Source of the DNA: Gynuella sp. | GTDB taxonomy: Bacteria > Pseudomonadota > Gammaproteobacteria > Pseudomonadales > Natronospirillaceae | Assembly: GCA_028282465.1 (NCBI GenBank) | Contig: JANQHX010000021.1 | Coordinates: forward strand, 2,437-34,436 | Direction of reading: 5' to 3' | Length of the DNA: 32,000 bases | Shown here: piece after piece, positions 2,448 through 25,543 of the stretch | How the letters are laid out: each line of letters opens with the position of its first letter | How positions within the stretch are numbered: the stretch's first letter is position 1 | Made by a program: the position numbers and the translations under genes | The notes under the pieces: generated by a model | What the model was told of the DNA's origin: nothing | What the model saw: only the letters and a program-made list of their open reading frames with translations | Databases searched by the model: none

Positions 2448-2462
2448 TCGGAGGCCGCACAC

Positions 2463-4268: not shown

Positions 4269-4278
4269 GGAGGTAACC

Positions 4279-5337
4279 GTGAATTCAAAAAATGTTTATC
4301 TGCTAGCTGGCATTGTGGTGGTTTTTGCCATTATTGCTGTCGTCGTAAGTAACATGAATCGAGGAAAAATTGATTCAGAAATCGACAAAGCTGGTGTGTT
4401 AATGCCTGAGTTAACCGCTCAGGTGTCGAAACTAAATAGAATCATATTCACTGAAAAAATTGATGGCGAATTGGTGACTAACACCCTGGTAAAAGAAGAC
4501 GATCAATGGCTGGTCACCACAGCCTTTAATTACCCTGCCAGAGTTCAAATGTTAACTGAATTGATGAACACATTGGCGTTAGCAAAAACAGTGGAACCCA
4601 AAACCGCTAAGCCAGAGTTTTATTATCGACTAGAGGTTAATGAACCCGAAACCACAGAAGAAGATATATCTGGTACTCGCGTTCAAATGTTTGCGGATGA
4701 AGAGCTAGCCTTCGATTTGATTATTGGTAAAACCGTTCTTAACGGTAATGGCCAATATGTTCGCTTCACTCAAGAACCTCAAAGCTGGTTGATGGATCAA
4801 GAAATTAATATTTCAGCGGAAGCACTGGCTCTGCTCAATCGAGTCATAGGTAAAGTCAGATCTGTGGATGTGCAACGCATTGACATTAAGGCTGACGGAA
4901 CACCTATTGTTATAACGAGAAATGACGTCTCGGAAAGCTTCCAGGTTCAAGAGCTTGGCGAGGGGGTTGTTGAATTTCCCTCATTGTTGACTTCAGCCGC
5001 TAATGCACTCAATGATAAACAATACGATCAGGTCATGCCGGTGTCAGACGTTGAACTGCCCGAGTCGTTTTCTACAGTTAACTATCTATTGTTTTCCGGT
5101 GCGAATATTCAGGTGACTGGTTATAAAACTGAAGATGACAAACGTTTGATCACAATATCCGTCACCAACACCAAGCAACCCAGTGATGATGGTTTTGATG
5201 TAACTGCTGGTGAAGTTGCTCGACTAAATGCTCAATGGCAACCTTGGGTGTATGAAGTGAGCAGAACGGTTTTTGAAGAATTCGAAAAAAATCGGGATGA
5301 TTTTGTTAAAGAGCCAGAGACGGCAGAGACTGAATAG
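4279..5337 (+). CDS. DUF4340-like membrane-anchored protein (fourth gene of the ABC/GldG operon)
   Basis: The ORF track starts at 4219, but that start overlaps the GldG-like gene. GTG at 4279 is in frame and lies 5 nt downstream of AAGGAGG (4267-4273). It gives an N-terminal anchor VNSKNVYLLAGIVVVFAIIAVVV. The family call rests on conserved position after GldG-like genes and is tentative. Confidence 0.55.
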   Translation: MNSKNVYLLAGIVVVFAIIAVVVSNMNRGKIDSEIDKAGVLMPELTAQVSKLNRIIFTEKIDGELVTNTLVKEDDQWLVTTAFNYPARVQMLTELMNTLALAKTVEPKTAKPEFYYRLEVNEPETTEEDISGTRVQMFADEELAFDLIIGKTVLNGNGQYVRFTQEPQSWLMDQEINISAEALALLNRVIGKVRSVDVQRIDIKADGTPIVITRNDVSESFQVQELGEGVVEFPSLLTSAANALNDKQYDQVMPVSDVELPESFSTVNYLLFSGANIQVTGYKTEDDKRLITISVTNTKQPSDDGFDVTAGEVARLNAQWQPWVYEVSRTVFEEFEKNRDDFVKEPETAETE

Positions 5338-5402: not shown

Positions 5403-7433
5403 TTAATCCAAGTCTTCACAATCATCTATGCCTGCAATAAGGGTGGCAGGCAATGCTCCACGAATACCTTCAACGTCTTCACAATTCAAACCAGTACCAG
5501 AAGCTTTTAACAATTTCAGTTGAGTTAACGACTCAATAGGAGTCAGATCAGCTGAAACATTGGATGACTCTATATCCAATTCTTCCAGACGATTCAGACC
5601 AGTTAAATCATCTAGGTTATTAATAGTTAGATGATTGAGCTTTAAGACTTGCAGCTGACTGAATTGACGAATAAAACTCAAATCAGAAACTGGTGTAGAT
5701 AAAATATCCAAGTATTTAATATTGGTTAATGTTTCCATTACAGAAGCGTCAACAAAGTCATAGCTCACATTCCAAATACTTAAAGATTCCAATTGCGAAA
5801 GACCCCTTAGTGGCTCTGGGCTTTCTATGCCGATAAATTCCAAATTCAGCGTTTGCAATTCAGCCATGTCTTTTAAACTTGAAGCATCTATTTTCCGTGA
5901 GTTAGAAAAACCATAAGCATTTGGTCTTAATGTTAAAGATCCTACTTGGTCCATATCTGCGAGAAAACCTAGACCTGTATAGGTACCAGTGTCATTCATG
6001 GCATAGGTTAATTCCAGGATATTTAAGCTGTCTAACTTTGGTAAGGCATTTTTAAGCCACTCTTCTTCATGAAACTCTATCACGAGTTTTTCTAAGTGAT
6101 CTTTCATGCCTTCAAGTGTTGAGGCGCTATTTTGGCTCAACTTAAAAGCATATAAGTCCAACAGAGTTAGGTTTTTTAGCCCCGACAGTGGCGAAATATC
6201 AAGTTCAGTGCTGCTAAAACCTCCATTTGTATAAACCAGCGAGATCAGTTCACTCATGTTAGCCAGATGGCTAAGATCCATCGGGGCTTCTAAATATTCT
6301 AAATCCAAAAATCTCATCTTGGTAAGCCCAGCTAAATTTACCAATGCTTGATCAGTGGTATTGCTTCCTAGCTTATTTAATTCAAGTGATTCCAATTCTG
6401 TTAGTGAACGCAGTGGAATTAGGGCGTCATCTAACAGCTCGTTTACTCCAAGGTTATTCTCGCTCAACGACAGTGACTCAAGCTGAGTCATGGAGGTTAA
6501 AGGAGTAATATCCTGAATTTGATTTCTTGATAACCATAAAGAACTTAGGTGAGTTAATCCGCCTATACCAGATAAATCATGAATTAAATTATCACTGGCT
6601 GATAGACTCGTCAGATTTGAGAATGCCAATAATGAATCAAGAGATTCAAATTGGTTTTGGGAAATATTAATTATCTGTAAAGATACTTGAGAGTCTTCAA
6701 GCTGGATTTCGGATATCTGGTTATTACTGATATCAAGCAATTTCAGGCTAGATAACCCAGGTAGGTTAACTGCAGGCCCTAATTCATTGCTATCTAGTTC
6801 AAGACTTTCCAATGCTGAAAGACCTGATAATCCTGTTACACCTTCAATATCGTTATCGCTGAGATACAGTGATGTTAGTTTAGAGTTACTTTCAAAAGAT
6901 GGCAGAGTTTCAATACGGTTGCTTTCAGCATAAAGGGTTTCTAGCTCTGGCTTATTTCTTAATGAGGCGATGCTTTTCAATTTGTTTTGCGCGAGATCAA
7001 CGATTGTAAGTTGTGAAAGATTCTCTAACGCATCGATAGACGTTACTGCATTGCCATATAGATGTAATTCTTTCAGCTGGGTCAGTTCAGCCAAAGGGGA
7101 TAAGTCTGTGACGGTATTAAGCGGGTCAACTTGATCTTCAAAAATATAGTTGAGATGGTTGTTCATCATAAGGTGTTCTAAATTCACAAATACTTCAATT
7201 CCTGAAATAGTTTTCACCCCTTTTTGTCGACAACGAATTTCGGTGACATCTTCAATGCTAGACCAGCCTTTCGATGCAGCGGTTGAAGAAATACACTGTT
7301 TAAACGCGTCATCTGGTATGTCTAGTTCTGAAATAAATTCAGGCGCTTGAGGAGTATTTGAATCATTTGACTCGTTGTTACAACCCATTAGGGTAACAAC
7401 TAATATCAGGGGAAGAATGGATCTAAATTTCAC
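5403..7433 (-). CDS. Leucine-rich-repeat (internalin-like) lipoprotein
   Basis: Signal peptide with lipobox LMGC (MKFRSILPLILVVTLMGCNN). Roughly 20-25 consecutive units of about 22 residues of type LxxLxxLxLxxNxIxDIxxL run through most of the 676 aa. Confidence 0.8.
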   Translation of the reverse strand: MKFRSILPLILVVTLMGCNNESNDSNTPQAPEFISELDIPDDAFKQCISSTAASKGWSSIEDVTEIRCRQKGVKTISGIEVFVNLEHLMMNNHLNYIFEDQVDPLNTVTDLSPLAELTQLKELHLYGNAVTSIDALENLSQLTIVDLAQNKLKSIASLRNKPELETLYAESNRIETLPSFESNSKLTSLYLSDNDIEGVTGLSGLSALESLELDSNELGPAVNLPGLSSLKLLDISNNQISEIQLEDSQVSLQIINISQNQFESLDSLLAFSNLTSLSASDNLIHDLSGIGGLTHLSSLWLSRNQIQDITPLTSMTQLESLSLSENNLGVNELLDDALIPLRSLTELESLELNKLGSNTTDQALVNLAGLTKMRFLDLEYLEAPMDLSHLANMSELISLVYTNGGFSSTELDISPLSGLKNLTLLDLYAFKLSQNSASTLEGMKDHLEKLVIEFHEEEWLKNALPKLDSLNILELTYAMNDTGTYTGLGFLADMDQVGSLTLRPNAYGFSNSRKIDASSLKDMAELQTLNLEFIGIESPEPLRGLSQLESLSIWNVSYDFVDASVMETLTNIKYLDILSTPVSDLSFIRQFSQLQVLKLNHLTINNLDDLTGLNRLEELDIESSNVSADLTPIESLTQLKLLKASGTGLNCEDVEGIRGALPATLIAGIDDCEDLD

Positions 7434-8886: not shown

Positions 8887-11091
8887 ATGTTAAAAAAAAT
8901 TCTGCGTAATCATCAAGCGGTTGTACTTGGGTTACTATTTACTGCCTTAACCTGTTGGTGGCAGTTGCATAATGACCCCCGCGAGCCGTCATTTCTAAAC
9001 CGTCTGGATTACATCCTCTACGACTGGCGGCTTAACTCCACTGGCTTTGCCAACAAACACCCTGACCACAATATTCTTATTGTAGACATAGACGAACGCA
9101 GTCTTAAGGTAGAAGGGCAGTGGCCCTGGGCCAGAACCAAGGTTGCAAAGCTGGTGCAGAAACTCTCAGAGCAAGGGGCCATTGTAGTCTCCTTCGACGT
9201 ACTGTTTTCTGAGCCAGAGCAGCATCCCTTGGAATTTATCTCTAATCTGGCTGAAGCCGAACCAGAGCTGTTAGCTCAATTAGAACAGTTTCGACAACAA
9301 TCAGATGGCGACCAACTGCTGGCACAAGCCTTTCAGCAAATGGACGTAGTACTAAGCTATTTACTCAGAGAAGAGCCAAACACAGTGGGTGCCCTGGGTC
9401 CCATTGTGGAAGAAATGACGGCAGAGCTCTCCAGCCGGAGCATTCTTCTCAAGGCTAATGGCTACACCGGCAATATTCCATTACTGGCCGACAGCGCTAT
9501 TTCCAGCGGCTTTTTTAACCCCACCCCCGACCCAGATGGGGTGATTCGCAGCGTGCCTTTGGTGTGGCGAATAGGTGATAAGGTGTATCCGTCACTAGCG
9601 CTGGCAACTGCCATGACCTATCTGTTTCAGGATGAAATCCATATAAAAAGAGTGGCGGTCGGCGACTTGGATTTTGTCGAAGGCATTCAATTTACCAAAA
9701 AGCTTATTAAAACCGACTCTCAAGCCAGGGTGATTGTGCCCTACATAGGCCCCAGAGATTCCTACACCTATGTGTCGGCCACCGATGTCTTAAATGACCA
9801 GGTGGATCTCTCTATTATGGAAAACGCCGTGGTAATGGTGGGCACCACAGCAGTGGGGTTATTCGATCTGAGAACCACACCGGTGGGCACTGAATACCCA
9901 GGAGTAGAAGTGCACGCCAATGTAGTGAATGCTCTTATGTCTGGTGATTTTCCCTATGCCCCAGATTGGAGTGACGCTGCAGTATTTGTTTTTCTATTAC
10001 TCATCGGCATTATTTTCTCTTTTGTGTTGCCAAAGTTTGGCCCAGTGGTGTTATTTTTATTTTCAGTGTTTGTACTGGTGATTTTAATCATCACCAATTT
10101 TTGGCTCTGGCAAGAACATAAACTGGCCTTGCCGCTAGCCAGCAGTTTAATTCTGTTATTTACCCTCAGCGTCATCAATTTAGTCGAAGGTTTTTGGCGT
10201 TCTACCCAAAGCCGAAGAGAAGTCACCGAAATGTTTGGCCAGTACGTGCCCCGAGCTCATATTGACCATATGCTAGAAGCGCCAGATGACTATGGTTTTG
10301 ACGGCGAAAGTAAAGAGCTCACAGTGTTGTTTTCTGACATTAGAAGCTTCACCACCATTTCTGAAAAGCTGTCGGCCATTGAATTAAAATCCTTATTAAA
10401 TCGCTACTTCACTCCCATTACCGAAATTATTTTTAATAACCGAGGCACCATCGACAAATACGTCGGCGACATGGTGATGGCATTTTGGGGCGCACCTTTA
10501 GACGATGAAAATCATGCCGAAAACGCTCTAAAAGCCACCATGGAAATGCTCGAAAAAATAGAAGCCTTAAAACCCGAATTTGTGGCAGACGGCTTACCAG
10601 AAGTGAATGTGGGTATTGGTTTAAATACCGGCCCCATGAACGTAGGCGATATGGGTTCAAACTTTCGCCGGGCTTATACCGTGTTAGGTGACGCTGTTAA
10701 TCTTGGTTCAAGATTAGAAAGCCTAACTAAATTTTACGGCGTGCAATGTTTAGTAGGGCCAGACACCAAAGACCTATGCCCCAATTATGCATTTCGCTTT
10801 GTAGATAAAATAATAGTGAAAGGCAAAGACGAACCCATTCAAGCCTGGGAGCCTTTGTGCCTAGAAAAAGATTTATCAGAAGATTGGCAAACCGAACTTA
10901 AACAATTTGAACAAGCCTATGAAAACTATGCTAACCAAAACTGGCAAGATGCTATTGAGCAACTGACACAATTAACAACCACTAGCCCAAGGCCATTTTT
11001 GTATCAAGTTTATTTAGACCGCATTGAAAGTTTAAAAGCACAAGACCTGCCTGAAGATTGGGATGGCACTTTTAGGCATACTTCGAAATAA
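8887..11091 (+). CDS. CHASE2 sensor domain-containing adenylate/guanylate cyclase (class III)
   Basis: N-terminal TM, a periplasmic region of about 330 aa, then a cluster of TM helices (residues ~360-440). A class III cyclase domain follows (LTVLFSDIRSFTTISE, YVGDMVMAFWGAP, GIGLNTGPMNVGDMGS, YTVLGDAVNLGSRLES). Confidence 0.85.
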   Translation: MLKKILRNHQAVVLGLLFTALTCWWQLHNDPREPSFLNRLDYILYDWRLNSTGFANKHPDHNILIVDIDERSLKVEGQWPWARTKVAKLVQKLSEQGAIVVSFDVLFSEPEQHPLEFISNLAEAEPELLAQLEQFRQQSDGDQLLAQAFQQMDVVLSYLLREEPNTVGALGPIVEEMTAELSSRSILLKANGYTGNIPLLADSAISSGFFNPTPDPDGVIRSVPLVWRIGDKVYPSLALATAMTYLFQDEIHIKRVAVGDLDFVEGIQFTKKLIKTDSQARVIVPYIGPRDSYTYVSATDVLNDQVDLSIMENAVVMVGTTAVGLFDLRTTPVGTEYPGVEVHANVVNALMSGDFPYAPDWSDAAVFVFLLLIGIIFSFVLPKFGPVVLFLFSVFVLVILIITNFWLWQEHKLALPLASSLILLFTLSVINLVEGFWRSTQSRREVTEMFGQYVPRAHIDHMLEAPDDYGFDGESKELTVLFSDIRSFTTISEKLSAIELKSLLNRYFTPITEIIFNNRGTIDKYVGDMVMAFWGAPLDDENHAENALKATMEMLEKIEALKPEFVADGLPEVNVGIGLNTGPMNVGDMGSNFRRAYTVLGDAVNLGSRLESLTKFYGVQCLVGPDTKDLCPNYAFRFVDKIIVKGKDEPIQAWEPLCLEKDLSEDWQTELKQFEQAYENYANQNWQDAIEQLTQLTTTSPRPFLYQVYLDRIESLKAQDLPEDWDGTFRHTSK

Positions 11092-11099
11092 ATAGTTCT

Positions 11100-14039
11100 T
11101 TAAGATTCATAGCGTGTTTCTATCAGTTTTCCTTTTAGATTGCTCAAATAGACTTGGTAGTATGACTCCATAAGTTCAGCTAGTTTTTCATATTCGTCAT
11201 TGCGTCCAAGTTGATAGCCCGCAGCAAAGTTTACAAAGTCCAGGTCTTTTAATTGCTGAACCATCACCTGATCAAGAAAATCAAACCATCCTTTGATTGA
11301 AGCCGATACCTCACAAGAGAAAGCATCGAACATTTCTTTGGCAGAATTAAATCCTATTCGGACATAATTGTTTCCAATTATTTGAAAAACGCCCATGCTT
11401 GTTGCTTGGTATGCCGCTTCTTCGTTAAGGCTACGGGCGAATTCAAATACCTCCCATTCTTTTCGTTGTTGACCATGAAAGTACTTCCAGTCTTCCTCAA
11501 CAGTTTTTCTCCATTTATGGCCTAACCAAACCTTGCTTGAGTCGTATTGAAAATGTTGGTTATATAAATCAGTGTTTGTTTTACCCCAATATTTCCAAAA
11601 TAAGTGATTTTCAAAACGTATTTTTAAACGATCTGAGTTGGTTTTATCTAGCTCTTCATCGTTAGATATCGAGCACAAAACAGCGAGGATGCAGCCTAAA
11701 TCAATTGCTGTTTTATTGCTGATTTGGAATATGAGTTTGCCGTATTTATCCCAGATAGAAGTCAGCTTGTTTATTTTATCCTTGTCCACAAAATCAGATT
11801 TTATTTCAGCAGGTTTAACCCGACTATTTTTGCCGATAGTAACTGTTAGTTTTCTTGGCCGACCCTGTTCATCCACGTTGTTTTCATCCCATTCCGCAAT
11901 GGAATCTTCATTGCCAAGGTTTTCCCAGATTTCCTTAAACATCATTAACGGGAAAATTCTGTCGTTTGTGTCTTTGCCCCAGAGCCACTTATACAATCGT
12001 GGGTCGGCTGGGTATTGGTTGCCGGGTTGGCCGGTTGAGTTGCTTCTTGCGAAGCCGGGTTGGTTTTCTGAGCAAATTATTTGGGTGTGGTATGCAGCCT
12101 CATTTTCAACCCACTCTTCAACAATGGCCGGGCCTTCCAAATCCTTGTAAAAAGTTTTTAAACACTTGCCAGTGGCTAGATCCCAGAGCTTGAGAGTGTT
12201 ATCAGTGCTTCCGGAAATGAATCGCTGGTCATCCACCATCGCCGCGCTGGTAACCGGGCCTCCATGGCCCACAAAGGTTTGTAAACAATTCCCGGTGGCC
12301 AGATCCCAGAGCTTGAGGGTGCGATCATCGCTTGCGGAAATGGCCCCCTGGTCATCCACCACCGCCACGCTGTTGATCCCGCTCCCATGGCCCACAAAGG
12401 TTTGTAAACACTGCCCAGAGGCCAGATCCCAGAATTTAAGAGTGTTATCATAGCTTCCGGAAATGGCCCGCTGGTCGCCCACCACCGCCACGCTGGTGAC
12501 CGATAGTTGATGGCCCTCAAAGGTTTGTAAACATTGAGCGGAGGCCTGATCCCAGAGCTTGAGGGTGTTATCCCAGCTGGCGGAAATAACCCGCTGGTCA
12601 TCCACCACCGCCAGACTGTTGACCGAGTGTTGATGGCCCTCAAAGGTTTGTAAGCACTGTCCGGAGGCCAGATCCCAGAGCTTGAACGTGTGATCATCGC
12701 TGGCGGAAATGACCCGCCGGTTATCCACCGCCACGCTGCTGACCCAGTCTTCATGGCCCTCAAAGGTTTTTAAACACTGTCCGGAGGCCAGCTCGAAGAG
12801 CTTGAGTGTTCTGTCATAACTGCTGGAAATAACCCGTTGGTGATCCACCACTACCACGCTGCTGACCCAGTTTTCATGGCCCTCAAAGGTTTGTAAGCAC
12901 TGTCCGGAGGCCAGATCCCAGAGCTTGAGGGTGTGATCACCACTGGCGGAAATGACCCGCTGGTCATCCACCACCGCCACGTTGGTGACCCAGTTTTCAT
13001 CCTCAAAGGTTTGTAAGCACTGTCCGGAAGCCAGATCCCAGAGCTTGAGAGTCTTATCACGGCTTGTGGAAATGACCCGCTGGTTATCTACCACCGCCAT
13101 GCTAGTGACCGAGCCTTGATGGCCCTCAAAGGTTTGTAAACACTGCCGGGAGGCCAGATCCCAGAGCTTGAGGTTAGCACGGCTTGCGGAAATGACCCGC
13201 TGGTCATCTACCACCGCCACGCTTGTAACCAGACCTCCATGGCCCTTAAAGGTTTGTAAACAATTGCCGGTGGCCAGATCCCAGAGCTTAAGGGTCTTAT
13301 CACGGCTTGCGGAAATGACCCGCTGGTCATCCACCACCGCCACGTTGGTGACTGGGCTTTTATGGCCCTCAAAGGTTTGTAAGCACTGTCCGGAGGCCAG
13401 CTCCCAGAGCGTGAGGGTCTTATCACGGCTTGCGGAAATGACCCGCTGGTCATCCACCACCGCCACGCTGCTGACCCAGTTTTCATCCTCAAAGGTTTGT
13501 AAGCACTGTCCGGATGCCAGATCCCATATCTTTAGAGTGTTATCATCGCTTCCGGAAATGACCCGCTGGTCATCCACCACCGCCACGCTGGTGACCGAGT
13601 CTCGATGGCCCTCAAAGGTTTGTAAACACTGCCGGGAGGCGAGATCCCAGAGCTTGAGGGTGTAATCATCGCTGGCGGAAATGACCTTCTGGTGATCCAC
13701 CACAGCTACGCTGGTGATCGAGGCTTGATGGCCAAGCCTAGTTAGACTTGGCAGCGATGTTTTTAGGTTAGCTGGGGTGTGCCATGGCACTCGCGTTTTT
13801 GATGTTGTGGAGTCACTTTCATTAAACCGAGCAAAATAATGCTCGGAGTAGGCCAGCGGTGTGCCCTCAAGGTTTGCCGGTGTTAAATCAAGCCCGCGAA
13901 TATAAGAACCGCTTAGATCCAGCTTGGAATAGTCCAATGTCTCAGCTCCAACAGTTGCTAAGCCGATAGGCTGAGCAGATTTGTATTCCGGGTTTATTTT
14001 TTTAACTAAAAGAGAAAGCGCCTGTGCGGTTTTATCCAT
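11100..14039 (-). CDS. WD40-repeat (13 blades) protein fused to a C-terminal DUF3380/N-acetylmuramidase-like domain
   Basis: 979 aa with no signal peptide. Residues 103-631 form 13 tandem 40/41-aa WD units (GHxxxVxSVAVVDDQRVISASxDxTLKLWDLASGQCLQTFE). Residues ~760-979 carry IRFENH, WLGHKWR, FHGQQRKEWEVF and SMGVFQIIG, about 50% identical by eye to the C-terminus of the 16202..17542 product. The ATG at 14039 overlaps the upstream KAP gene stop by 8 nt. Confidence 0.85.
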   Translation of the reverse strand: MDKTAQALSLLVKKINPEYKSAQPIGLATVGAETLDYSKLDLSGSYIRGLDLTPANLEGTPLAYSEHYFARFNESDSTTSKTRVPWHTPANLKTSLPSLTRLGHQASITSVAVVDHQKVISASDDYTLKLWDLASRQCLQTFEGHRDSVTSVAVVDDQRVISGSDDNTLKIWDLASGQCLQTFEDENWVSSVAVVDDQRVISASRDKTLTLWELASGQCLQTFEGHKSPVTNVAVVDDQRVISASRDKTLKLWDLATGNCLQTFKGHGGLVTSVAVVDDQRVISASRANLKLWDLASRQCLQTFEGHQGSVTSMAVVDNQRVISTSRDKTLKLWDLASGQCLQTFEDENWVTNVAVVDDQRVISASGDHTLKLWDLASGQCLQTFEGHENWVSSVVVVDHQRVISSSYDRTLKLFELASGQCLKTFEGHEDWVSSVAVDNRRVISASDDHTFKLWDLASGQCLQTFEGHQHSVNSLAVVDDQRVISASWDNTLKLWDQASAQCLQTFEGHQLSVTSVAVVGDQRAISGSYDNTLKFWDLASGQCLQTFVGHGSGINSVAVVDDQGAISASDDRTLKLWDLATGNCLQTFVGHGGPVTSAAMVDDQRFISGSTDNTLKLWDLATGKCLKTFYKDLEGPAIVEEWVENEAAYHTQIICSENQPGFARSNSTGQPGNQYPADPRLYKWLWGKDTNDRIFPLMMFKEIWENLGNEDSIAEWDENNVDEQGRPRKLTVTIGKNSRVKPAEIKSDFVDKDKINKLTSIWDKYGKLIFQISNKTAIDLGCILAVLCSISNDEELDKTNSDRLKIRFENHLFWKYWGKTNTDLYNQHFQYDSSKVWLGHKWRKTVEEDWKYFHGQQRKEWEVFEFARSLNEEAAYQATSMGVFQIIGNNYVRIGFNSAKEMFDAFSCEVSASIKGWFDFLDQVMVQQLKDLDFVNFAAGYQLGRNDEYEKLAELMESYYQVYLSNLKGKLIETRYES
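12147..13733 (-). repeat. Intragenic tandem repeat array (13 units of 120/123 bp) encoding the WD40 blades
   Basis: The motif AGATCCCAGAGCTTGA (or close variants) recurs near 12178, 12300, 12423, 12546, 12669, 12789, 12912, 13032, 13155, 13275, 13398, 13518 and 13641. An exact 42-nt duplicate occurs at 12987-13028 and 13473-13514. Confidence 0.9.
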
Positions 14040-15981
14040 GGTTACTATCCACTAATTGCTCTCCTAAATTTTGTATTCGCTCTAACACCCTGGTTGTTTT
14101 ATAAAATTCTGTCAGTTGAATGGCTGAAGTAATATCGGCTAAGTCTTCTAGCCATTCAATATCGGTAACCAGGGTTTCATTTGAAGTCATATATTCTTCA
14201 GACCTAAATAGCTCTAGCCATTCATGAAAAACTGGGTCTGGTAACTTTTTATGGCGCCATTCTTGTCGCCTAATAAAATCTCTTCTTGAACTTATGTCTG
14301 GCAGCATAAAACCACTTTGTAGCTCCCCCAGATCAACATTCGAAATAGTTTCTAAGTGGTCTTCATTAATGATTTGAACAGGAGCTTTATGCTTTTGAGT
14401 TTCAATAGCTTGATTTTTTAAATACAGGGCCTCGAATTGGTTTAAAGCTTCATCATCAGTAATAGGGTTAGATTTAATTTCATTACCGTGAAAGGCTGCA
14501 AGTGGGTCTATGCTGTAGCGGTTTCGTTTGGATTCACGGAGTAAGTTTTTAAACTGATGCCAAGCCAGTTGATATTCACTGACGGTTATTGGGCTGGTTG
14601 GATTCTGAGTGCCTTCCAAAGCCTCTTTATTACTTTTATCCACCTCTTCAACGATTGTCTGGGCCTCGAATCTATAACTCATTTTGCATTCAAACAACCA
14701 GTTGTATACCACTTCATTAGACCTGAGCAGGCGATATAAGCTGGAGAATTGCTGTTCTAAAATAGTAATTCTGGCTAGATGTTCTAAGTGCTGGTCATGC
14801 TGGTTAATAAATTCTTTGCCGCCTTCTAGGTTTTGAATGGTATCTCGCTTGAGTTGTATGGCTTCTGCGGCTCGAATAAGTTTTCTAGGTACAGGTGGAA
14901 TGGCTTGGTTAAATAAATTCAATAAGGGTAGATTTAATTTAGTTTCTGCATGTTTATCCTCTGGTTGTTCGTCTTGGCGATCATCTATTTGACTAGCTTT
15001 TTGGGCATCTTCTGCTTTTTCTTCAACTACAAAAAGGCTTGGGTAATGTTCAATTAAATAAGCTTGGGTTTGGTTTTGTGACCACCTAGGCAAATGAATA
15101 GGAATATGAACAATCTTTTCTAAATACTCTGCGCCGGTAATAGGTGGGCTGATATTGGAGTCTCGGTCTTTTTCTAAAAAGTAGTCTTTGTATCTATGGT
15201 TAATGCCTCGTTCAACCACTTCGTCGTCTACGGCTAGCACAAAGGCAAAATTATTAATATTTAAAAATAGTTTGATGGATTCAAGCATTTGTACTGCGTT
15301 ATCTGGCAGGCATCTGTCCAAGTCATCTACAAGTACAATAATTCTAATTTTGAGTTTATCGTCGTCAGGTGATTGGGTGAGTTGTTCAAGTGATTCAAAG
15401 GTACCGTAATACATGGACTCCATCTTTTTAGTCGCTTCATTTTTCTTAGCGTCAGAAGCTGCCGCTGATTCTAGGCTGTCTTTGCCACTGAATTTGATGA
15501 CACCAAAATCAAAACTCAAACCAGTTGCGACAGATCTCGTTAAATCAGCAATGGTTTCACCGGTTTTTATTAGCAAGGATTTAAGTTGGTCAGTAACAGC
15601 CCTTGTTAATGTCAAGGCATGGCTTTCGATCTTGCTTTGATACTTTTCTAACTGGTTTTCAATGGTTTTTAACAGAGGAATGATTAAAAAGTCTTCCTGC
15701 TCGTATTTCCAAGGGGAGAAAAACACAGGAATATTGATATGCTTTATCGAGTTGTCTTCAGTATTTGAGTCTTGCCAGATTAAATTTTCAGATTTGGAGT
15801 AGTGTTTTTCAATCTGTCTTAGGTGCCAGGTTTTACCTATGCCCCATTCACCATAAACAGACACCACCAATGCTTCACCACTGGCTTTGTGGGGAAAACT
15901 GGTATTAATAACATCACAAATGTTACTGACGATTTCGCTAGAAACATCACTGGAAACGTTAGCGGTATCCGAAACGGGCAT
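14032..15981 (-). CDS. KAP-family P-loop NTPase (soluble form)
   Basis: Walker A is VYGEWGIGKT. It is followed by FFSPWKYE, and the Walker B region is IIVLVDDLDRCLPDNAVQMLESIKLFL..FAFVLAVDDE. This is the hallmark KAP arrangement. No TM insertion is seen. A helical C-terminal region of about 330 aa has unknown function. Confidence 0.8.
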   Translation of the reverse strand: MPVSDTANVSSDVSSEIVSNICDVINTSFPHKASGEALVVSVYGEWGIGKTWHLRQIEKHYSKSENLIWQDSNTEDNSIKHINIPVFFSPWKYEQEDFLIIPLLKTIENQLEKYQSKIESHALTLTRAVTDQLKSLLIKTGETIADLTRSVATGLSFDFGVIKFSGKDSLESAAASDAKKNEATKKMESMYYGTFESLEQLTQSPDDDKLKIRIIVLVDDLDRCLPDNAVQMLESIKLFLNINNFAFVLAVDDEVVERGINHRYKDYFLEKDRDSNISPPITGAEYLEKIVHIPIHLPRWSQNQTQAYLIEHYPSLFVVEEKAEDAQKASQIDDRQDEQPEDKHAETKLNLPLLNLFNQAIPPVPRKLIRAAEAIQLKRDTIQNLEGGKEFINQHDQHLEHLARITILEQQFSSLYRLLRSNEVVYNWLFECKMSYRFEAQTIVEEVDKSNKEALEGTQNPTSPITVSEYQLAWHQFKNLLRESKRNRYSIDPLAAFHGNEIKSNPITDDEALNQFEALYLKNQAIETQKHKAPVQIINEDHLETISNVDLGELQSGFMLPDISSRRDFIRRQEWRHKKLPDPVFHEWLELFRSEEYMTSNETLVTDIEWLEDLADITSAIQLTEFYKTTRVLERIQNLGEQLVDSNHG

Positions 15982-20274: not shown

Positions 20275-20952
20275 TTAGTCTCGTCTTACTCGAATCAGTA
20301 TTCGTCGGTTCTGAGTTCTGCGTTCTTCAACAGGAATGGTTTCGTCTGTGACCTTGGGGCGCGAATCAGCATAGCCAGAAGCTTTCATTTGCATTGGGTC
20401 TAAGCCCTGTTCTTGAAAATACTTCACTATGTTTGTGGCGCGATTGGAACTGAGCTCCCAGTTGGAATCGTATTTCTCATTGTGAATGGGAACATCATCT
20501 GTATGACCTTCAATTTCGACAATGTAATAACCTTGAAGATTGTTCGAAACCACTTTCGCTACATCATTCAACAGAGGTAATGCCTGTGGTTGTATATCGG
20601 CACTGCCAGAATCGTAAAGCGGAAAGTTAGTAAACTCCAGTAATACGCCTTTGTCATCAATGGTGACATTTGCAAACTGTTCCAGATCTCGAGTTTCGAT
20701 AACGGATTGCCAACCCGCTTCGATATCTCGCAATGGAGTTTGAACCTTTGTGTTGCTGATGGCTTCAGCTAAGCCTTCTTTTAACGCTTCAATTTTGCCT
20801 TGATTTAAATCTGAGACGCTCATGATCATGACAAAAAAAGCAAGCAACAAAGTGATCACATCGGAATAGGTCACTAACCAACTGTCTTGCTCTCCTTCAC
20901 CCCCTAGCCTTGGCCGACGTCGCTCTGCTCCAGGCCGTGTGCGAAGATTCAT
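20275..20952 (-). CDS. MotB/PomB-like stator subunit with OmpA-type peptidoglycan-binding domain
   Basis: The TM segment WLVTYSDVITLLLAFFVMIMSV contains the conserved channel Asp. The C-terminal OmpA-like motifs are IEGHTDDVPI, SNWELSSNRATNIVKYF and NRRILIRV. The start codon directly abuts the upstream stop (TAAATG). Confidence 0.85.
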   Translation of the reverse strand: MNLRTRPGAERRRPRLGGEGEQDSWLVTYSDVITLLLAFFVMIMSVSDLNQGKIEALKEGLAEAISNTKVQTPLRDIEAGWQSVIETRDLEQFANVTIDDKGVLLEFTNFPLYDSGSADIQPQALPLLNDVAKVVSNNLQGYYIVEIEGHTDDVPIHNEKYDSNWELSSNRATNIVKYFQEQGLDPMQMKASGYADSRPKVTDETIPVEERRTQNRRILIRVRRD

Positions 20953-21750
20953 TTAAGATTGCTCGCTTGCCATGTCGTAGTAGGCTTTGGGGTTAATTAA
21001 TGCGTTAAGTCGGTCTTGTATGGTGAGGGCGTCGGCCTTTTCCATCATGAATACAAACCCGTCACACCAGAGTTGATGCCGTAAATATTCCCCTTCCATT
21101 TTTTTAAAAATATGAACGGCGGCAGGTCTGAAAATCAACTGAGCCAGCATGACGCCATAGAGAGTGGTGATTAAGGCCAACGCAAGACCTTTGCCTAAGG
21201 CAGTTATGTCCCCATCCATGTTATCTAACATGATGATTAAGCCGATGATAGTACCAACCATACCAAAGGCCGGTGAGTAACTAGCCATGGTGTGTAACAC
21301 TTTTGCCGATTGAGTTCTTCGAGAAAAATCCGCTTCAATGCGGTTAGATATTAAATAGCGAATCTCTTTAGAATCATAGCCCGCAGTTATTTGTTCTAAA
21401 CAATAAGTTAGAAACTCGTTCTTTTTTTCTTTGTTGGTAAGGGAATTTGAAACCGCTGTGAGACCTTGTTGTCGATAGATTTGGCTCCATTCAATAAAAC
21501 GTTTGATGTCTGACCTCAGGGTGCTGTGGTTGTCGCGCTCTTCACTGAAAGTTCGAAAAAGAGCAAAAATAGCGGTGACAAACTCCTTCATGTTGTAACT
21601 AATAATGGTCGCCGCTGCTGTTCCACCCAACACCATAGCAACACTGGTGGGGCTAATAAAAATAATGAAGTTATCGGTATTCGAGGTGATCGCATAAAAG
21701 AATAATGCGATGGCACCTATGATGCCGATGAGTGTGCTAATAAATGTCAT
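20953..21750 (-). CDS. MotA/PomA-like proton/sodium channel stator subunit
   Basis: 265 aa with four TM segments in the MotA/PomA arrangement (two N-terminal, a cytoplasmic loop, two C-terminal). It carries YSPAFGMVGTIIGLI and ALITTLYGVMLAQLIF. It has an ATGA overlap with the upstream gene. Confidence 0.85.
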   Translation of the reverse strand: MTFISTLIGIIGAIALFFYAITSNTDNFIIFISPTSVAMVLGGTAAATIISYNMKEFVTAIFALFRTFSEERDNHSTLRSDIKRFIEWSQIYRQQGLTAVSNSLTNKEKKNEFLTYCLEQITAGYDSKEIRYLISNRIEADFSRRTQSAKVLHTMASYSPAFGMVGTIIGLIIMLDNMDGDITALGKGLALALITTLYGVMLAQLIFRPAAVHIFKKMEGEYLRHQLWCDGFVFMMEKADALTIQDRLNALINPKAYYDMASEQS

Positions 21751-23687
21751 TCAATGGTTGCCAAATCTTGCATACTGAATTTACCGGTTTTTATTAATTC
21801 ACGAATATGGTGAACAATGGTACGACGAGATTGCTCAACGAGGTTATCGTCCGGTTGAGAGTCTGTGTATTGAAGTTGATCTTGTACCGCAGCTCGTACC
21901 TTTGAAGGCAGTGCTTCTAGAATATATTTCACTAACTGCGGGTTGGCATTTGCGAGCGCCGAGGTCAATTGCTTTCTGTCTACTTCCCGAAGAATTTCAC
22001 CTAGAATTTCAGGTGGTGTTCTGCCTAGATCATTAAAGGTGTAGTAAACCTGTCGTAAGCGATAATAGGTTTCTGGTGAGTCCTGCTTAATTCGGTCTAG
22101 CAACTGATGCTCGTCAGAAGAGGGTAAGTTGTCGAGCATATCAATCAACAGAGCGGTGCCATCGGTATTGAGGTTTTCAAAGCTAGGCACGTTTAAAGAT
22201 TTTTTGGCAAGTCTGTCTGCGACATCTCTAAACGTGGCAATGGGAAATTCATTAAATTGTCCAATTTCGTAAGCAATTTGGCCCTGCTGTGCCGGTGCTA
22301 AATGTTTTAGCAAAGCCGCAGCCCGTGTGGCAGAGACTTGAGACAGTACCAAGGCTTTGATTCTGGGTTCTTCATCTTGCAGAAGGTAAACAATTTGGCC
22401 ATCAGCCAGTCGATCTAAAAATTTAAATGGCTTAGAAGGATGATGCTCCGGAAAGGATGCCTGATCTCGTAGTAATACATGCCTTAGTGCGGTTAACTCG
22501 GAGTGAACTTCATCTGGTGTTAATTGGTTTTGTTCCAGAAATTGAGTGATCTCATAAATCTGTCCAGTGCTGATGGACGGGAATAAGCCTCTGAACAGAG
22601 AGCCCCCTAGAGTCTGGTAGGCGGATGCTAGGGTTTTTAAATAGTTACCACCCAATAGTAAATCTTCAACCCGTCCACTGGCCCGTTCTGGATTACCAAG
22701 GCCAGCGGTAATAATTTCTTGTTTTAGAGATCGGATGTCGGCAACCACTGGTGCTTCAGAGGTTTCGTTGCTGATAGCACTAGGTACGCTAATGGGCGCC
22801 TGGTTTACTGTTGAGTCTGGCGGTAGTGTATATTTAGGCTTTCTAAAAATGAGGATCAGCAACAGTAAAAAAATAGACGCCGCAAAAGCCAGTGCAACCC
22901 AAGGTACCCAAGTTTGCTGCCACCAGTTTAACTCTTCGCTAGTACTATTGGGGTCCAGCGCTTCCGGCATTCTGGTGTCTGGTTCGCTGTTCAATTCATC
23001 AGAAATGGATTCAAAAGGCGTTTTTACCAGAACAAGGCGGTCACCACGAAAGTAATTCAGTTTCAGCTTACTCTCTAAAAGTGTTCTGACAAATTCTTCC
23101 TGAGAGAGACTAATGGTTTCGTCAATTAATATGGTTACCACCAGGTTTTCTATTCTGGAGAAAATGTCCTGACTAGTTTCCAGTATTTCTTCAACGGGCT
23201 CGCCGCTGTCTTCAAAATTAACAAGACTTTCCCGCATGGATTTTAAACTTTCCAGTACCGGTGAATCCGTGGGTGCTGGTACTTCAACGGATGCATCTTC
23301 ACCAAAGGGTAATCCTGGTAGTTGAATGCTTTCTGGCGTGGAGGATTGTTGTTGTTCCAGCGTCTTTTGTTCTAGTTCCTCGATAAGAGCATTGAGGTTT
23401 TGTAATTTTTGTTCTTGAGCTGGGCTTAAAATATAGTCAGGTGCCGCTTTTGGAATGGTACCTCGCAACCGTTGAATACGGGCATCAATATTGATGATGA
23501 AACGATCATTACCCAAGTAGGCTCGAAGGTCTCTGGTAATTCGGTTTTCCATCTGCCCGATGAATTCCATTTCTGTCATCACGTCTTGTTCAGCAGAAAT
23601 GAACTCGTCAACACTCCAAGCTTTGGCGCTTAGCAAAACCAACAAACTGACGCTGACCCATAAAAAGTATTTGTTCATGTTCATCAT
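21747..23687 (-). CDS. Bitopic membrane protein: periplasmic N-terminal half, TM, and FliG-like (middle + C-terminal domain) cytoplasmic half
   Basis: It has a signal/anchor (YFLWVSVSLLVLLSAKAW), an acidic periplasmic region of about 230 aa, and a TM at residues ~256-281 followed by RKPK. Residues ~420-640 show FliG-type motifs: IVYLLQDEEPRIKALVLSQVSATRAAALLKHLAPAQQGQIAYEI (compare LLxxEHPQxxAxxLSxL), VYYTFNDL (compare MFxFxDL) and ILREVDRKQLTSALANA..LPSKVRAAV. Similarity was judged by eye only. Confidence 0.65.
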   Translation of the reverse strand: MMNMNKYFLWVSVSLLVLLSAKAWSVDEFISAEQDVMTEMEFIGQMENRITRDLRAYLGNDRFIINIDARIQRLRGTIPKAAPDYILSPAQEQKLQNLNALIEELEQKTLEQQQSSTPESIQLPGLPFGEDASVEVPAPTDSPVLESLKSMRESLVNFEDSGEPVEEILETSQDIFSRIENLVVTILIDETISLSQEEFVRTLLESKLKLNYFRGDRLVLVKTPFESISDELNSEPDTRMPEALDPNSTSEELNWWQQTWVPWVALAFAASIFLLLLILIFRKPKYTLPPDSTVNQAPISVPSAISNETSEAPVVADIRSLKQEIITAGLGNPERASGRVEDLLLGGNYLKTLASAYQTLGGSLFRGLFPSISTGQIYEITQFLEQNQLTPDEVHSELTALRHVLLRDQASFPEHHPSKPFKFLDRLADGQIVYLLQDEEPRIKALVLSQVSATRAAALLKHLAPAQQGQIAYEIGQFNEFPIATFRDVADRLAKKSLNVPSFENLNTDGTALLIDMLDNLPSSDEHQLLDRIKQDSPETYYRLRQVYYTFNDLGRTPPEILGEILREVDRKQLTSALANANPQLVKYILEALPSKVRAAVQDQLQYTDSQPDDNLVEQSRRTIVHHIRELIKTGKFSMQDLATIE

Positions 23688-24443
23688 TTAGTTAAATAGA
23701 ACTTCCAGACCCTTTCGAACATCTTCCATGTTGGGATCAATTTCTAATGCTTGTTCCCAAGCCGTTTTGGCTTCTTCTCTGCGGCCCATTTTGTAATAAA
23801 TACTGCCCTTTAAGGCATAGGCCAGTGCAAATTCAGGCTGTTGATTGATTGCCTGTAATGTCGCGTTCAATGCACCTAGATAGTCTCGCCGGTAAAACAG
23901 TTGTTGTGCCAATACAATACTGTCGTTAGCAGTCATTCCTGACGATGGCGTCGGGTTTAATGTTGTCTCGGTAATGCCATCTGCATTGGTTGTTTCATCA
24001 ATAGGTAACTCGCGATTACTTGAATTTGGTTGTTCATTCTCTCCCATATCCATGGACTTCAGTTTTTCTGCAACTGCACCTAATGGATCATCAGTCTCTT
24101 CCGATTCAGGTAAGTCCATAACAAAGGCAACGTTTTCTTCGCCAGTATCTAGAATTAAGGAGATGTTATAACCCGGACCATGACGGTCTATGGTGATGAC
24201 TCCGAAGTCATCCTTGCCTCTCTGGTTGAGCTGGGTGGGTTCAATTGGCGAATTCGCTTGTAGAATTTGCGATTCTGTGGGGCTAGTTAATTCAGTGTTT
24301 GCGCTGCTATCGCTAATGGTGACGTCTTCGGTTTTAGACGTTTGTTCAGAAGCCGATGTGCCGTTGTTTTGTCCAAACATGGAACAGGCTGATATCAAAA
24401 ACATGGATGTCATTGTCAGCAAAAAAGGAGTCAGTCTTCTCAT
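23688..24443 (-). CDS. TPR-repeat lipoprotein
   Basis: The preferred start is ATG 24443 (MRRLTPFLLTMTSMFLISACS, lipobox ISAC), which overlaps the upstream stop by 1 nt (TAATG). The track start at 24524 would overlap the upstream gene by 82 nt. A Ser/Thr/Glu-rich linker is followed by C-terminal TPR units (YALKGSIYYKMGRREEAKTAWEQALEIDPN). Confidence 0.7.
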   Translation of the reverse strand: MRRLTPFLLTMTSMFLISACSMFGQNNGTSASEQTSKTEDVTISDSSANTELTSPTESQILQANSPIEPTQLNQRGKDDFGVITIDRHGPGYNISLILDTGEENVAFVMDLPESEETDDPLGAVAEKLKSMDMGENEQPNSSNRELPIDETTNADGITETTLNPTPSSGMTANDSIVLAQQLFYRRDYLGALNATLQAINQQPEFALAYALKGSIYYKMGRREEAKTAWEQALEIDPNMEDVRKGLEVLFN

Positions 24444-25543
24444 TAGAATCGATACCCCAAAGTAATGTCGTAACTTGCCCCGCCAAATTCTGAAGATTCT
24501 TCTAGGCCATCTACTTCTTTCCATTCCACTTCTTGTTCAGGTAAATAAATAACACCTAAATCAATGTAGCCGTTTCTTGTAAAAGGAAATTCGATTCCGT
24601 ATTTGTAGACGAGAGATTGTTGTTCTTTAAAAAATGCCTGGCCCAGTTCCAAATACATGAGTGTTGGCACCCATTGCTCCAACGCGGATATATTAACTTC
24701 CACTCGGCCTTCAATAACAAAGCCCAGCATGTCGAAATAATCTGTTTGGGCAAGATTTGAAAAAGTTTCGAAACCAAGACCATAACTAATGTCTTCGTTG
24801 AGTTCTGAATGCTCTCTGCGTCTAATACCGAATGTGGTCACGCTTGATAATTGACGGTCAGAAACGCCAGTGCCTTCTCGTTCTGCACTGAATCCCCATG
24901 CTCCTACAAATAATTCCCAGTCGACTCGGTCAAACTCTTCTTCATTCAGTTCTTCGTCCCGTTTAGCTAATTCGATTGGGTTTGTTTTTCTAGCGTATTG
25001 CCGAGTCCAAACAACATGGTTATCTGTGGCATCAACCAGTCTCATGTCGACAGTAAATTTTTCTTCATACACATTTGCGCTCCACATAAAAAACCCATCC
25101 ACTTGAAGCTTTCTGGCTAGGTTGCGCATGTCTTTGTTACTTTCTATCGCTTGATTAATACTGAGTTGATCGTTTTGAAGTTTTACTTGAATCAATTTGC
25201 ATTCAACACACTCGGTGACCAAAAACTTTTCGGTATCAATCAACTTTTTAATGATCATGCCTTCGATCATGGTTTCTGTTGACTTAGGTATTTTTTTATA
25301 AAGTCTGTCTTCTGTGTGATACAAGGCTACTCGCATCACAGGTATTTCCAAATCCGCAAGCTCTTGCACAGGTAGTGTGTTTTCATCTTCCATGAGTTCT
25401 GCAAACCCGTTGTAGTAACGAGCCTGTGTTTCCACCAAATTACTGGTCTGCCCAGTTTCAGCCTGAACATAGTTCAAAGTAGAAAATAAAATTGTTACCC
25501 ATGTGGCAAAAAATTGCCGCTCGAGACTGGCTTCAGCCTGCAT
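24443..25543 (-). CDS. Putative secreted/outer-membrane protein (first gene of the stator-rotor operon)
   Basis: The N-terminal hydrophobic segment ends in VQA-E. The C-terminal half has alternating aromatic/hydrophilic patterns and ends GYRF, the terminal Phe typical of beta-barrel OMPs. I recognise no family. Confidence 0.45.
   Translation of the reverse strand: MQAEASLERQFFATWVTILFSTLNYVQAETGQTSNLVETQARYYNGFAELMEDENTLPVQELADLEIPVMRVALYHTEDRLYKKIPKSTETMIEGMIIKKLIDTEKFLVTECVECKLIQVKLQNDQLSINQAIESNKDMRNLARKLQVDGFFMWSANVYEEKFTVDMRLVDATDNHVVWTRQYARKTNPIELAKRDEELNEEEFDRVDWELFVGAWGFSAEREGTGVSDRQLSSVTTFGIRRREHSELNEDISYGLGFETFSNLAQTDYFDMLGFVIEGRVEVNISALEQWVPTLMYLELGQAFFKEQQSLVYKYGIEFPFTRNGYIDLGVIYLPEQEVEWKEVDGLEESSEFGGASYDITLGYRF

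Follow-up and report, generated by a model that had tools for sequence, protein, structure and literature searches.

FliG and the MS-ring are counted among the components of the flagellum and, to our knowledge, every well-studied pairing of FliG with a MotAB stator turns a rod and filament built by a type III export apparatus. A 32,000 nt stretch of Gynuella sp. DNA (contig JANQHX010000021.1, positions 2,437 to 34,436; the whole of it is called the window below) raises the question of whether such a torque-generating pair can also stand alone. At nt 21747–23687 on the minus strand it carries a gene for a 646 aa protein in which a FliF-type ring-building motif (RBM3), a single transmembrane (TM) helix and FliG-like domains are joined in one polypeptide. 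Genes for a MotA-like and a MotB-like protein (by Pfam) lie directly downstream on the same strand, as a preliminary description of this locus had proposed, and genes for two envelope proteins lie upstream. The five genes form a cassette (nt 20275–25543, minus strand, as are all cassette coordinates given below) that probably encodes a stand-alone flagellar-type rotor-stator machine, operating outside any flagellum. This reading is based on domain homologies, on the structure and conservation of the operon and on the purifying selection acting on its genes; these are set out first, and the reading is then weighed against its alternatives.

Architecture of the fusion protein

The 646 aa open reading frame (ORF) starts with ATG and its domain content was established using Pfam, AlphaFold2 (AF2) and Foldseek. 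The N-terminus (residues 1–24, nt 23616–23687) reads MMNMNK-YFLWVSVSLLVLLS-AKA↓WS, with a hydrophobic core of 14 residues. It looks like a predicted Sec signal peptide, and homologues have equivalent N-termini. A periplasmic part of about 230 aa follows, and then the only TM helix (residues 254–281, nt 22845–22928), where an AF2 helix with pLDDT values of 80–92 coincides with a hydrophobic stretch that ends in RKPK. An AF2 run with the family alignment predicted residues 282–311 to be disordered and residues 313–634 to be all-helical. This layout of a signal-like N-terminus, periplasmic segment, one TM helix with RKPK and a cytoplasmic region carrying FliG_M- and FliG_C-like motifs agrees in each of its parts with the preliminary description.

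The periplasmic domain

Residues 32–225 (nt 23013–23594) are assigned to a FliF-RBM3-like ring-building domain from the AF2 model, Foldseek, Pfam matches in relatives and profile comparisons. The AF2 model places a helix at 32–58, a strand at 63–76, an insert, a strand at 174–189, a helix at 194–208 and a strand at 217–223, so that the periplasmic part is predicted to be one alpha-beta-(insert)-beta-alpha-beta unit, a single RBM3 split by the insert. Two stretches had earlier been picked out as reminiscent of ring-building motifs. They correspond to helix 32–58 with strand 63–76, and to strand 174–189 with helix 194–208, and the likeness to ring motifs was borne out, but they are the halves of one domain. 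Two separate periplasmic RBMs are thus ruled out by the predicted structure.

The 18 best PDB matches of the periplasmic model were all RBM3/collar chains of FliF MS-rings (Foldseek E 7e-5 to 3e-2, probability 0.92–1.00), which argues against a non-ring fold. The injectisome proteins PrgK and EscJ came next in the ranking, with probabilities of ≤0.1. The Pfam family for RBM3 (YscJ_FliF_C, PF08345) matched nine of 11 family members, with a best E of 2.3e-12. A profile of the periplasmic part, searched against 1.84 billion representative proteins, gave 175 matches at E ≤ 1e-3. Among the 124 that were classified, 68 (and nine weaker ones) share the RBM3-TM-FliG architecture while 47 are without the FliG part. 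Three of these 47, of FliF size, were checked (P0128, P0133 and P0162; E 2e-6 to 5e-5), and they proved to be canonical FliF proteins with both YscJ_FliF and YscJ_FliF_C domains.

Neither the window protein nor any of its relatives had a match to RBM1/RBM2 (Pfam YscJ_FliF, PF01514). In FliF, RBM1 and RBM2 house the export gate, and because they are absent here the fusion cannot do so. Between the first and second strands of the RBM3 there is instead an insert of 97 residues (77–173, nt 23169–23459), predicted by AF2 at low confidence to form two helices (89–115 and 143–160) arranged as a hairpin, with the sequence LPGLP (residues 123–127, nt 23307–23321) at the turn. All five of these residues (L123, P124, G125, L126 and P127) are invariant in the close-family alignment (A1) and nearly so in the wider alignments (A6 and A7). 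In the model, the insert sits at the topological site of the FliF beta-collar; the collar itself is absent, and a helical structure is predicted in its place.

The cytoplasmic domains

Two FliG domains are recognised by Pfam in the cytoplasmic part: the middle domain at residues 431–500 (nt 22188–22397; FliG_M, PF14841, E 2.7e-15, 56.8 bits against a cut-off of 25) and the C-terminal torque domain at residues 532–638 (nt 21774–22094; FliG_C, PF01706, E 2.1e-20, 73.5 bits against a cut-off of 23.3). The preliminary description had allowed that MgtE_N or a similar helical-repeat family might fit better. It does not, as the MgtE_N match reaches 26.8 bits compared to 73.5 for FliG_C, and is limited to residues 558–609, a sub-stretch of FliG_C; an MgtE-type regulatory domain is therefore ruled out. 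The 13 best PDB matches of the full fusion model were FliG chains (Foldseek E 1e-8 to 4e-6), and the alignments to full-length FliG covered 309–351 columns. The FliG_C structure of T. maritima (1qc7) superposes on the model with an rmsd of 1.5 Å over 88 columns. By hhalign, columns 103–326 of the family cytoplasmic profile align with residues 103–321 of E. coli FliG at 91.9% probability; this comparison to a single E. coli FliG covered the M and C domains and did not reach the N-domain.

Residue mapping to E. coli FliG places K596 at the position of R281 and D603 at that of D288 (nt 21879–21902), within the torque helix. K596 is an invariant lysine in alignment A1, and all gammaproteobacterial members keep at least one acidic residue at the 288/289 positions. 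The segment aligned with the MFLF hinge of E. coli FliG reads YYTF in the fusion.

Between the disordered linker and the M domain lies a further conserved helical domain (residues 313–410, nt 22458–22751) with six helices predicted by AF2. In the alignment, G329, L330, P333, Y357, G361, L364, F365, R366 and P370 are invariant. The length of the Foldseek alignments suggests that this region may correspond to FliG_N together with the C-terminal peptide of FliF. A Pfam FliG_N match (25.2 bits) falls on residues 445–537, that is, on the M region and not on the N region.

The protein differs from FliG in being membrane-anchored and fused, whereas FliG is soluble, is encoded with fliF and fliH, and acts with FliM and FliN. 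No fliM, fliN or fliH gene was found in the window or in the related loci examined. The fusion shares 19% identity with E. coli FliG, and its score for the NCBIfam FliG equivalog (TIGR00207) is 70.8 bits, below the cut-off of 226.7. Given that several defining features were tested and found lacking, the fusion is not a member of either flagellar family: it is built from a FliG torque module and a FliF ring-building domain, and is an orthologue of neither protein.

The only match from outside the family in the first homology search was P0017 (556 aa), a FliG with all three domains and a C-terminal extension of about 230 residues rich in Arg and Ala. A frameshift, or a fusion of fliG with fliH, in a high-GC organism might account for this protein.

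Stator genes, envelope genes and operon structure

The gene following the fusion (nt 20953–21750) encodes a stator A subunit of the MotA/PomA type (265 aa; Pfam MotA_ExbB, E 9.4e-23). Its best NCBIfam match is PomA (142.4 bits, equivalog cut-off 341), and its scores place it with the flagellar PomA/MotP type rather than with ExbB, TolQ or ZorA. The next gene (nt 20275–20952) encodes a stator B subunit of the MotB type (225 aa) with a plug (MotB_plug, E 1.9e-15), a channel aspartate in the sequence YSD, and an OmpA-like peptidoglycan-binding domain (OmpA, E 1.4e-18). The equivalog score for MotD is 160.8 bits and does not reach the cut-off of 283. The equivalents of MotA R90, P173 and P222 are kept in every locus compared, together with MotB D32, which is invariant in 17 loci. 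With these residues invariant and both the plug and the OmpA-like domain present, the MotAB-like pair looks functional. The ‘minimal rotor’ of the preliminary description is a plausible inference, since the stator residues are conserved and the operon context supports it.

The first gene of the operon (nt 24443–25543) encodes a secreted protein of 366 aa with a putative FlgO-like periplasmic domain. The Pfam FlgO match (PF17680) is below threshold (E 0.011, 16.1 bits against a cut-off of 22.6), and 13 of 21 relatives also match weakly, with a best E of 3.9e-4; the resemblance is suggestive only. The protein has a conserved CxxC motif (C112 and C115) and ends in GYRF, with a C-terminal aromatic residue (alignment A8). 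This ending suggests that the C-terminal part is a predicted outer-membrane beta-barrel. A profile search of the PDB returned only FadL matches, none of them significant.

The second gene (nt 23688–24443) encodes a putative TPR lipoprotein of 251 aa with the lipobox ISAC, a long linker of low complexity and C-terminal TPRs (TPR_2, E 1.1e-9). The ORF as listed is longer. It extends to nt 24524, beginning 81 nt inside the upstream gene, and the TPR_2 match spans residues 233–265 in its numbering. The ATG at nt 24443 corresponds to Met28 of that ORF and overlaps the stop codon of the upstream gene as TAATG; because of this overlap, and since a signal peptide with the lipobox follows, the true product is probably the 251 aa lipoprotein. 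Most TPR homologues also have a lipobox.

The order of the five genes is therefore FlgO-like protein, TPR lipoprotein, fusion, MotA and MotB. All four junctions are either overlapping or without a gap: TAATG between the 366 aa protein and the TPR protein, then TAAATG, then ATGA between fusion and MotA, and TAAATG between MotA and MotB. With these junctions the genes are translationally coupled. A promoter scan found fewer promoter-like sites than in shuffled sequences, and a terminator scan found none that was convincing 3′ of motB.

Distribution, gene order and selection

The fusion has 16 full-length relatives of 34–74% identity, with 110 invariant columns that include three family-specific motifs (LPGLP, VPSFEN and PETYYR), and the proteins of the family range in size from about 600 to 700 aa. 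The order of all five genes is kept in 27 gammaproteobacterial loci with unrelated flanks. The hosts are Oleispira, Thalassolituus, Bermanella, Oceanobacter, Bacterioplanoides, Marinicellulosiphila, a Pseudomonadales metagenome-assembled genome (MAG), Aliivibrio fischeri and A. logei. The genome scan used only the close alignment A1, and distant members are under-sampled by it, as the wider alignments A6 and A7 have no conserved stretch suitable for such a scan.

Beyond the Gammaproteobacteria, MAGs of Fibrobacterales carry the genes in a permuted order (fusion, a protein of about 370 aa, TPR, MotA and MotB), and one further metagenomic lineage shows the gene order of the window. Cultured Fibrobacter hosts were sought but only MAGs were found, and no claim is made for a proven non-flagellated host for this reason. 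In Aliivibrio, all five genes are under purifying selection, with dN/dS values of 0.00–0.19. No further flagellar genes were found in the window or in the flanks of the relatives examined.

In two loci (L038 and L039) the cassette is expanded, and consists of genes for MotB, a 364 aa protein, a TPR protein, an RBM3-repeat protein, a second TPR protein and a FliG-like protein of 602 aa. The RBM3-repeat proteins (L038 2507–3865, L039 3129–4487, P0100, P0103, P0107 and P0117) are periplasmic and mostly have a lipobox. They contain tandem RBM3-like repeats, two or three in number, that have an insert of the LPG type and end in RGD...F, and a C-terminal TPR follows. The L038/L039 type carries two repeats, and the TPR resembles that of the window lipoprotein. 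Since RBM3-like repeats are fused to a TPR of the same type in the expanded cassettes, RBM3 rings appear to be tied to TPR proteins in these systems, and the tandem repeats suggest multi-ring periplasmic structures in some lineages.

Other distant members have different neighbours. At L007 (7303–8715), a distant fusion gene is followed not by MotAB but by genes for a TraF_2/PorP_SprF-like outer-membrane protein and two large unknown proteins. The members at L008 and L035 are also without adjacent MotAB, and the neighbour at L035 is a KAP-family NTPase.

The cassette of Aliivibrio fischeri

One family member resides in an organism where parts of the cassette have been studied. Aliivibrio fischeri ES114 carries the same five genes in the order of the window on chromosome II (L034 6316–11065; NC_006841.2, about 205.2–210.0 kb). 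Its fusion is shorter (579 aa) and 27–28% identical to the window protein, and in the TPR protein the lipobox is replaced by a plain signal peptide. A published motA2 primer (Brennan et al. 2013) maps within the MotA gene of this cassette. As motA2 and motB2 are VF_A0186 and VF_A0187 (PMC10804989), the fusion should, by position, be the gene immediately upstream of VF_A0186.

ES114 also has separate fliF and fliG genes and a motA1B1 pair (PMC3948606). Disruption of motA2 or motB2 left motility in soft agar intact, and neither gene was activated by FlrA, showing that the cassette is independent of swimming in this one family member (PMC3948606). The stator genes are the only ones of the five to have been studied, as presumed flagellar paralogues, and they were set aside in 2013 for lacking a motility phenotype. 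A literature search found no paper on the A. fischeri fusion, TPR or FlgO-like genes. With a member in A. fischeri ES114, which is genetically tractable and well suited to electron cryo-tomography, the function of the cassette can be tested directly.

A proposed rotor and stator without a flagellum

A working model of the machine can be proposed. It infers that a ring is assembled and rotates, and likewise which ion is coupled, what the two envelope proteins do, what load is driven and what the biological output is. The fusion would assemble through its periplasmic RBM3 into an inner-membrane ring similar to that of FliF, which comprises about 33–34 subunits. On the cytoplasmic side, every subunit of the fusion ring would hold FliG domains that are covalently linked to it by the single TM helix. 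Carried in this way, a FliG ring would form without FliF-FliG docking, FliM or FliN. Stators of the MotA5B2 type, fixed to the peptidoglycan through MotB and its OmpA-like domain, would pass H+ or Na+ by way of the conserved MotB aspartate and push on the torque helix of FliG_C. Torque would then cross the membrane and reach the RBM3 ring on the periplasmic side, together with its helical insert. Opposite this ring and its LPGLP-tipped insert would be the TPR lipoprotein and the FlgO-like protein. These two would be the outer partner of the motor, serving the stators as a static scaffold or bushing, in the manner of MotX and FlgO/P/T of Vibrio, or else being themselves the load that the motor turns. 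As RBM1/2, an export gate, a rod and a switch complex are all missing, the machine would export nothing, and control by CheY is improbable.

Many of the hosts named above are degraders or colonisers of insoluble material (oil-degrading Oceanospirillales, a cellulose degrader, Fibrobacterales and Aliivibrio), and for this reason the output may be a surface-associated process. In its most specific form, the proposal is of a free-standing, ion-driven rotary motor, an RBM3/FliG ring with MotAB and no type III export, that turns a TPR/FlgO-like assembly for a use other than swimming, perhaps movement on surfaces or the handling of material there. This form is put forward tentatively, and falls somewhat short of being probable.

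Several results weigh against a rotating machine. When the periplasmic sequence of the window protein was searched alone, Pfam gave no YscJ_FliF_C match, nor anything else relevant, so that the assignment to RBM3 had to draw on relatives, on a profile and on a fold comparison; the best PDB match of the periplasmic profile (Salmonella FliF, 6scn 233–442) reached only E 0.06. The AF2 models are of monomers and are of modest quality (pLDDT 66), with the periplasmic insert poorly predicted. Of the charged residues on the torque helix and on the cytoplasmic loop of MotA, whose conservation the preliminary description proposed to check, the equivalents of FliG R281 and D288 and of MotA R90 are kept, but those of FliG K264, D289 and R297 are Ala, Gln and Asp, and that of MotA E98 is Ser in the window, although Glu in most relatives. 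This leaves a single classical charge pair intact out of two. The FliM-binding EHPQR motif (E125-H-P-Q128, R160) is altered to E439-E-P-R442 ... E474, and the change from R160 to Glu is fixed across the gammaproteobacterial members. The cassette is without FliM and FliN, and in engineered FliFG rings that lack these proteins the FliG region is fuzzy and flexible (PMC10941966). Neither a load nor an output component was recognised, some distant family members are without adjacent MotAB, and the motA2 and motB2 mutants of A. fischeri have no reported phenotype (PMC3948606).

The best-surviving alternative is a fusion that does not rotate. It would be a membrane docking or regulatory partner for MotAB, either a track or adaptor of the Agl/Glt or Tol/Exb-like kind, with rotation of the MotA pentamer driving lateral movement or conformational work, or a sink that titrates stators. 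The incompletely conserved charge pairs of the window protein fit such a role, as do the members without a stator pair next to them, one of which stands beside the PorP/SprF-like outer-membrane protein. Other 5:2 motors operate without a large rotor ring (PMC12505986), and RBM folds are found in non-rotating assemblies too, PrgK and EscJ being among the weak fold matches. However, the best structural relatives are the RBM3 ring chains of FliF specifically, the FliG M and C module is retained and constrained, torque-helix Lys and Asp included, and a MotB with plug and peptidoglycan anchor is typical of stators that act on a rotor. A non-rotating partner is unlikely on balance.

A second alternative stays within the flagellum: the cassette would be a conditional or auxiliary flagellar part, such as an alternative rotor and stator, or a stator reservoir, used under certain loads or ions. 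All of its recognisable domains are indeed flagellar (FliF RBM3, FliG, MotA/PomA, MotB and FlgO), hosts such as Aliivibrio are flagellated (ES114 with its own fliF/fliG and motA1B1), and motA2 and motB2 were grouped with the motility genes that are lowered in one biofilm model (PMC10804989). Set against this are the normal swimming of the A. fischeri disruptants in soft agar and the place of both genes outside the FlrA regulon (PMC3948606). Moreover, the fusion has neither the RBM1/RBM2 housing for an export gate nor a beta-collar to surround a rod, its FliM-binding motif is changed, and flagellar genes are unlinked to the cassette at all loci examined. We consider a flagellar accessory improbable, and more so than a non-rotating partner.

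It is very improbable that the cassette is the decaying, now functionless remnant of a lost second flagellar system. The FliG, PomA and MotB scores are well under the equivalog cut-offs and the mutants studied have no known phenotype, but the five ORFs are intact and translationally coupled, they are kept across Gammaproteobacteria and Fibrobacterales MAGs, and many columns are invariant, among them the new motifs LPGLP, VPSFEN and PETYYR. The dN/dS values together with the synteny largely refute a pseudogenised remnant. Equally remote is an anti-phage defence system of the Zorya kind, which PADLOC and NCBIfam scores contradict: the PADLOC matches are weak (MotA-like to ZorA, E 2e-4; MotB-like to ZorB, E 3e-22, the latter reflecting general MotB homology), and genes for a KAP NTPase and a WD40 protein are found at a distance of about 5 kb within the window, but the MotA-like protein (265 aa) has no long ZorA tail and scores 142 bits for PomA against 18 for ZorA, there are no genes similar to ZorC, D or E, and the other three cassette proteins have no PADLOC match.

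A stand-alone rotor-stator machine thus remains the favoured reading of the cassette. The torque core would have been cut loose from the rest of the flagellum, packaged with a stator and two envelope proteins, and selectively maintained in several marine Gammaproteobacteria and in MAGs of Fibrobacterales. If true, the cassette would be a living model of a flagellar motor that is independent of type III secretion, and would bear on the long-standing question of how a motor and an export apparatus were combined in the flagellum. If it rotates, it would represent a new class among the few bacterial rotary machines, and a naturally minimal rotor-stator system without a switch complex.

Comparison with known systems

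The fusion shares with the flagellar FliF and FliG core a periplasmic RBM3 followed by a TM helix, and FliG M and C domains with the basic (R281) and acidic (D288) torque-helix positions. The stator pair shares with MotAB/PomAB a PomA-like MotA with R90, P173 and P222, and a MotB that has the plug, the channel Asp and an anchor of the OmpA-like kind. Unlike the flagellar core, the fusion is one polypeptide that is without RBM1/RBM2, has the collar replaced by a predicted helical LPGLP insert, and has an altered EHPQR motif; no genes for FliM/N, export apparatus, rod, hook or filament are linked to it; its scores are far under the equivalog cut-offs; and the A. fischeri stator genes are dispensable for swimming (PMC3948606).

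FliF and FliG were treated in the preliminary description as separate proteins, with their fusions known from engineering. Engineered Vibrio FliF-FliG fusions do build MS-rings (PMC10941966, PMC11481574), and engineered or spontaneous Salmonella fusions are cited in PMC4768692, but a natural fusion has also been described before, in Chlamydiaceae (PMC4768692). The engineered proteins consist of full-length FliF and full-length FliG within a complete flagellar system, and indicate that a covalent linkage is compatible with ring assembly. The chlamydial protein is the nearest natural precedent. It is about 330 aa long, with an RBM2-like domain, one further RBM and a FliG_M-like region only, and it was discussed in connection with the injectisome, with no mention of a stator (PMC4768692). 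Both it and the window protein are natural combinations of a ring protein with a FliG-like cytoplasmic domain, outside a complete flagellum and with a reduced set of RBMs. The window protein differs in its length (646 aa), in having RBM3 only, in having FliG M and C domains and a putative N-like domain, and in its MotA, MotB, TPR and FlgO-like partners.

GldLM, AglRQS, ExbBD, TolQR and ZorAB are likewise engines of the MotA/MotB superfamily that carry out non-swimming work in the envelope, often with outer-membrane partners, but none of these engines is known to have FliG or an RBM3 ring as its partner. The upstream genes recall the T-ring (MotX/MotY) and H-ring (FlgO/FlgP/FlgT) of Vibrio, where repeat-rich periplasmic and FlgO-type proteins also accompany a Pom-type stator. 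In alpha-proteobacteria, the TPR proteins MotC and MotK act with MotB (PMC13023049). The TPR lipoprotein is likened to MotX, MotC and MotK by analogy of role only. No description of the present family was found in the literature searched, which covered few subscription journals.

Other genes in the window

Outside the cassette, four co-directional genes at nt 781–5337 (plus strand) encode an ABC ATPase, an ABC-2 permease, an ABC_transp_aux/DUF7088 protein and a DUF4340 protein. In domain content, the leading three match the GldA/GldF/GldG-type transporter of gliding bacteria. No link between these genes and the cassette is conserved among relatives. A 676 aa leucine-rich-repeat protein (nt 5403–7433, minus strand) and an adenylate/guanylate cyclase with a CHASE2 sensor (nt 8887–11091, plus strand) are encoded between the transporter genes and a WD40/KAP gene pair. 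In other genomes the cassette has neither of them as a conserved neighbour. The WD40/KAP pair itself (nt 11100–15981, minus strand) consists of a gene for a 979 aa WD40-repeat protein that overlaps, on the same strand, a gene for a 649 aa KAP-family P-loop NTPase. The G+C content rises to 0.54 at 12–14 kb, compared to about 0.39–0.47 elsewhere in the window, and the WD40/KAP region may for this reason be an acquired island.

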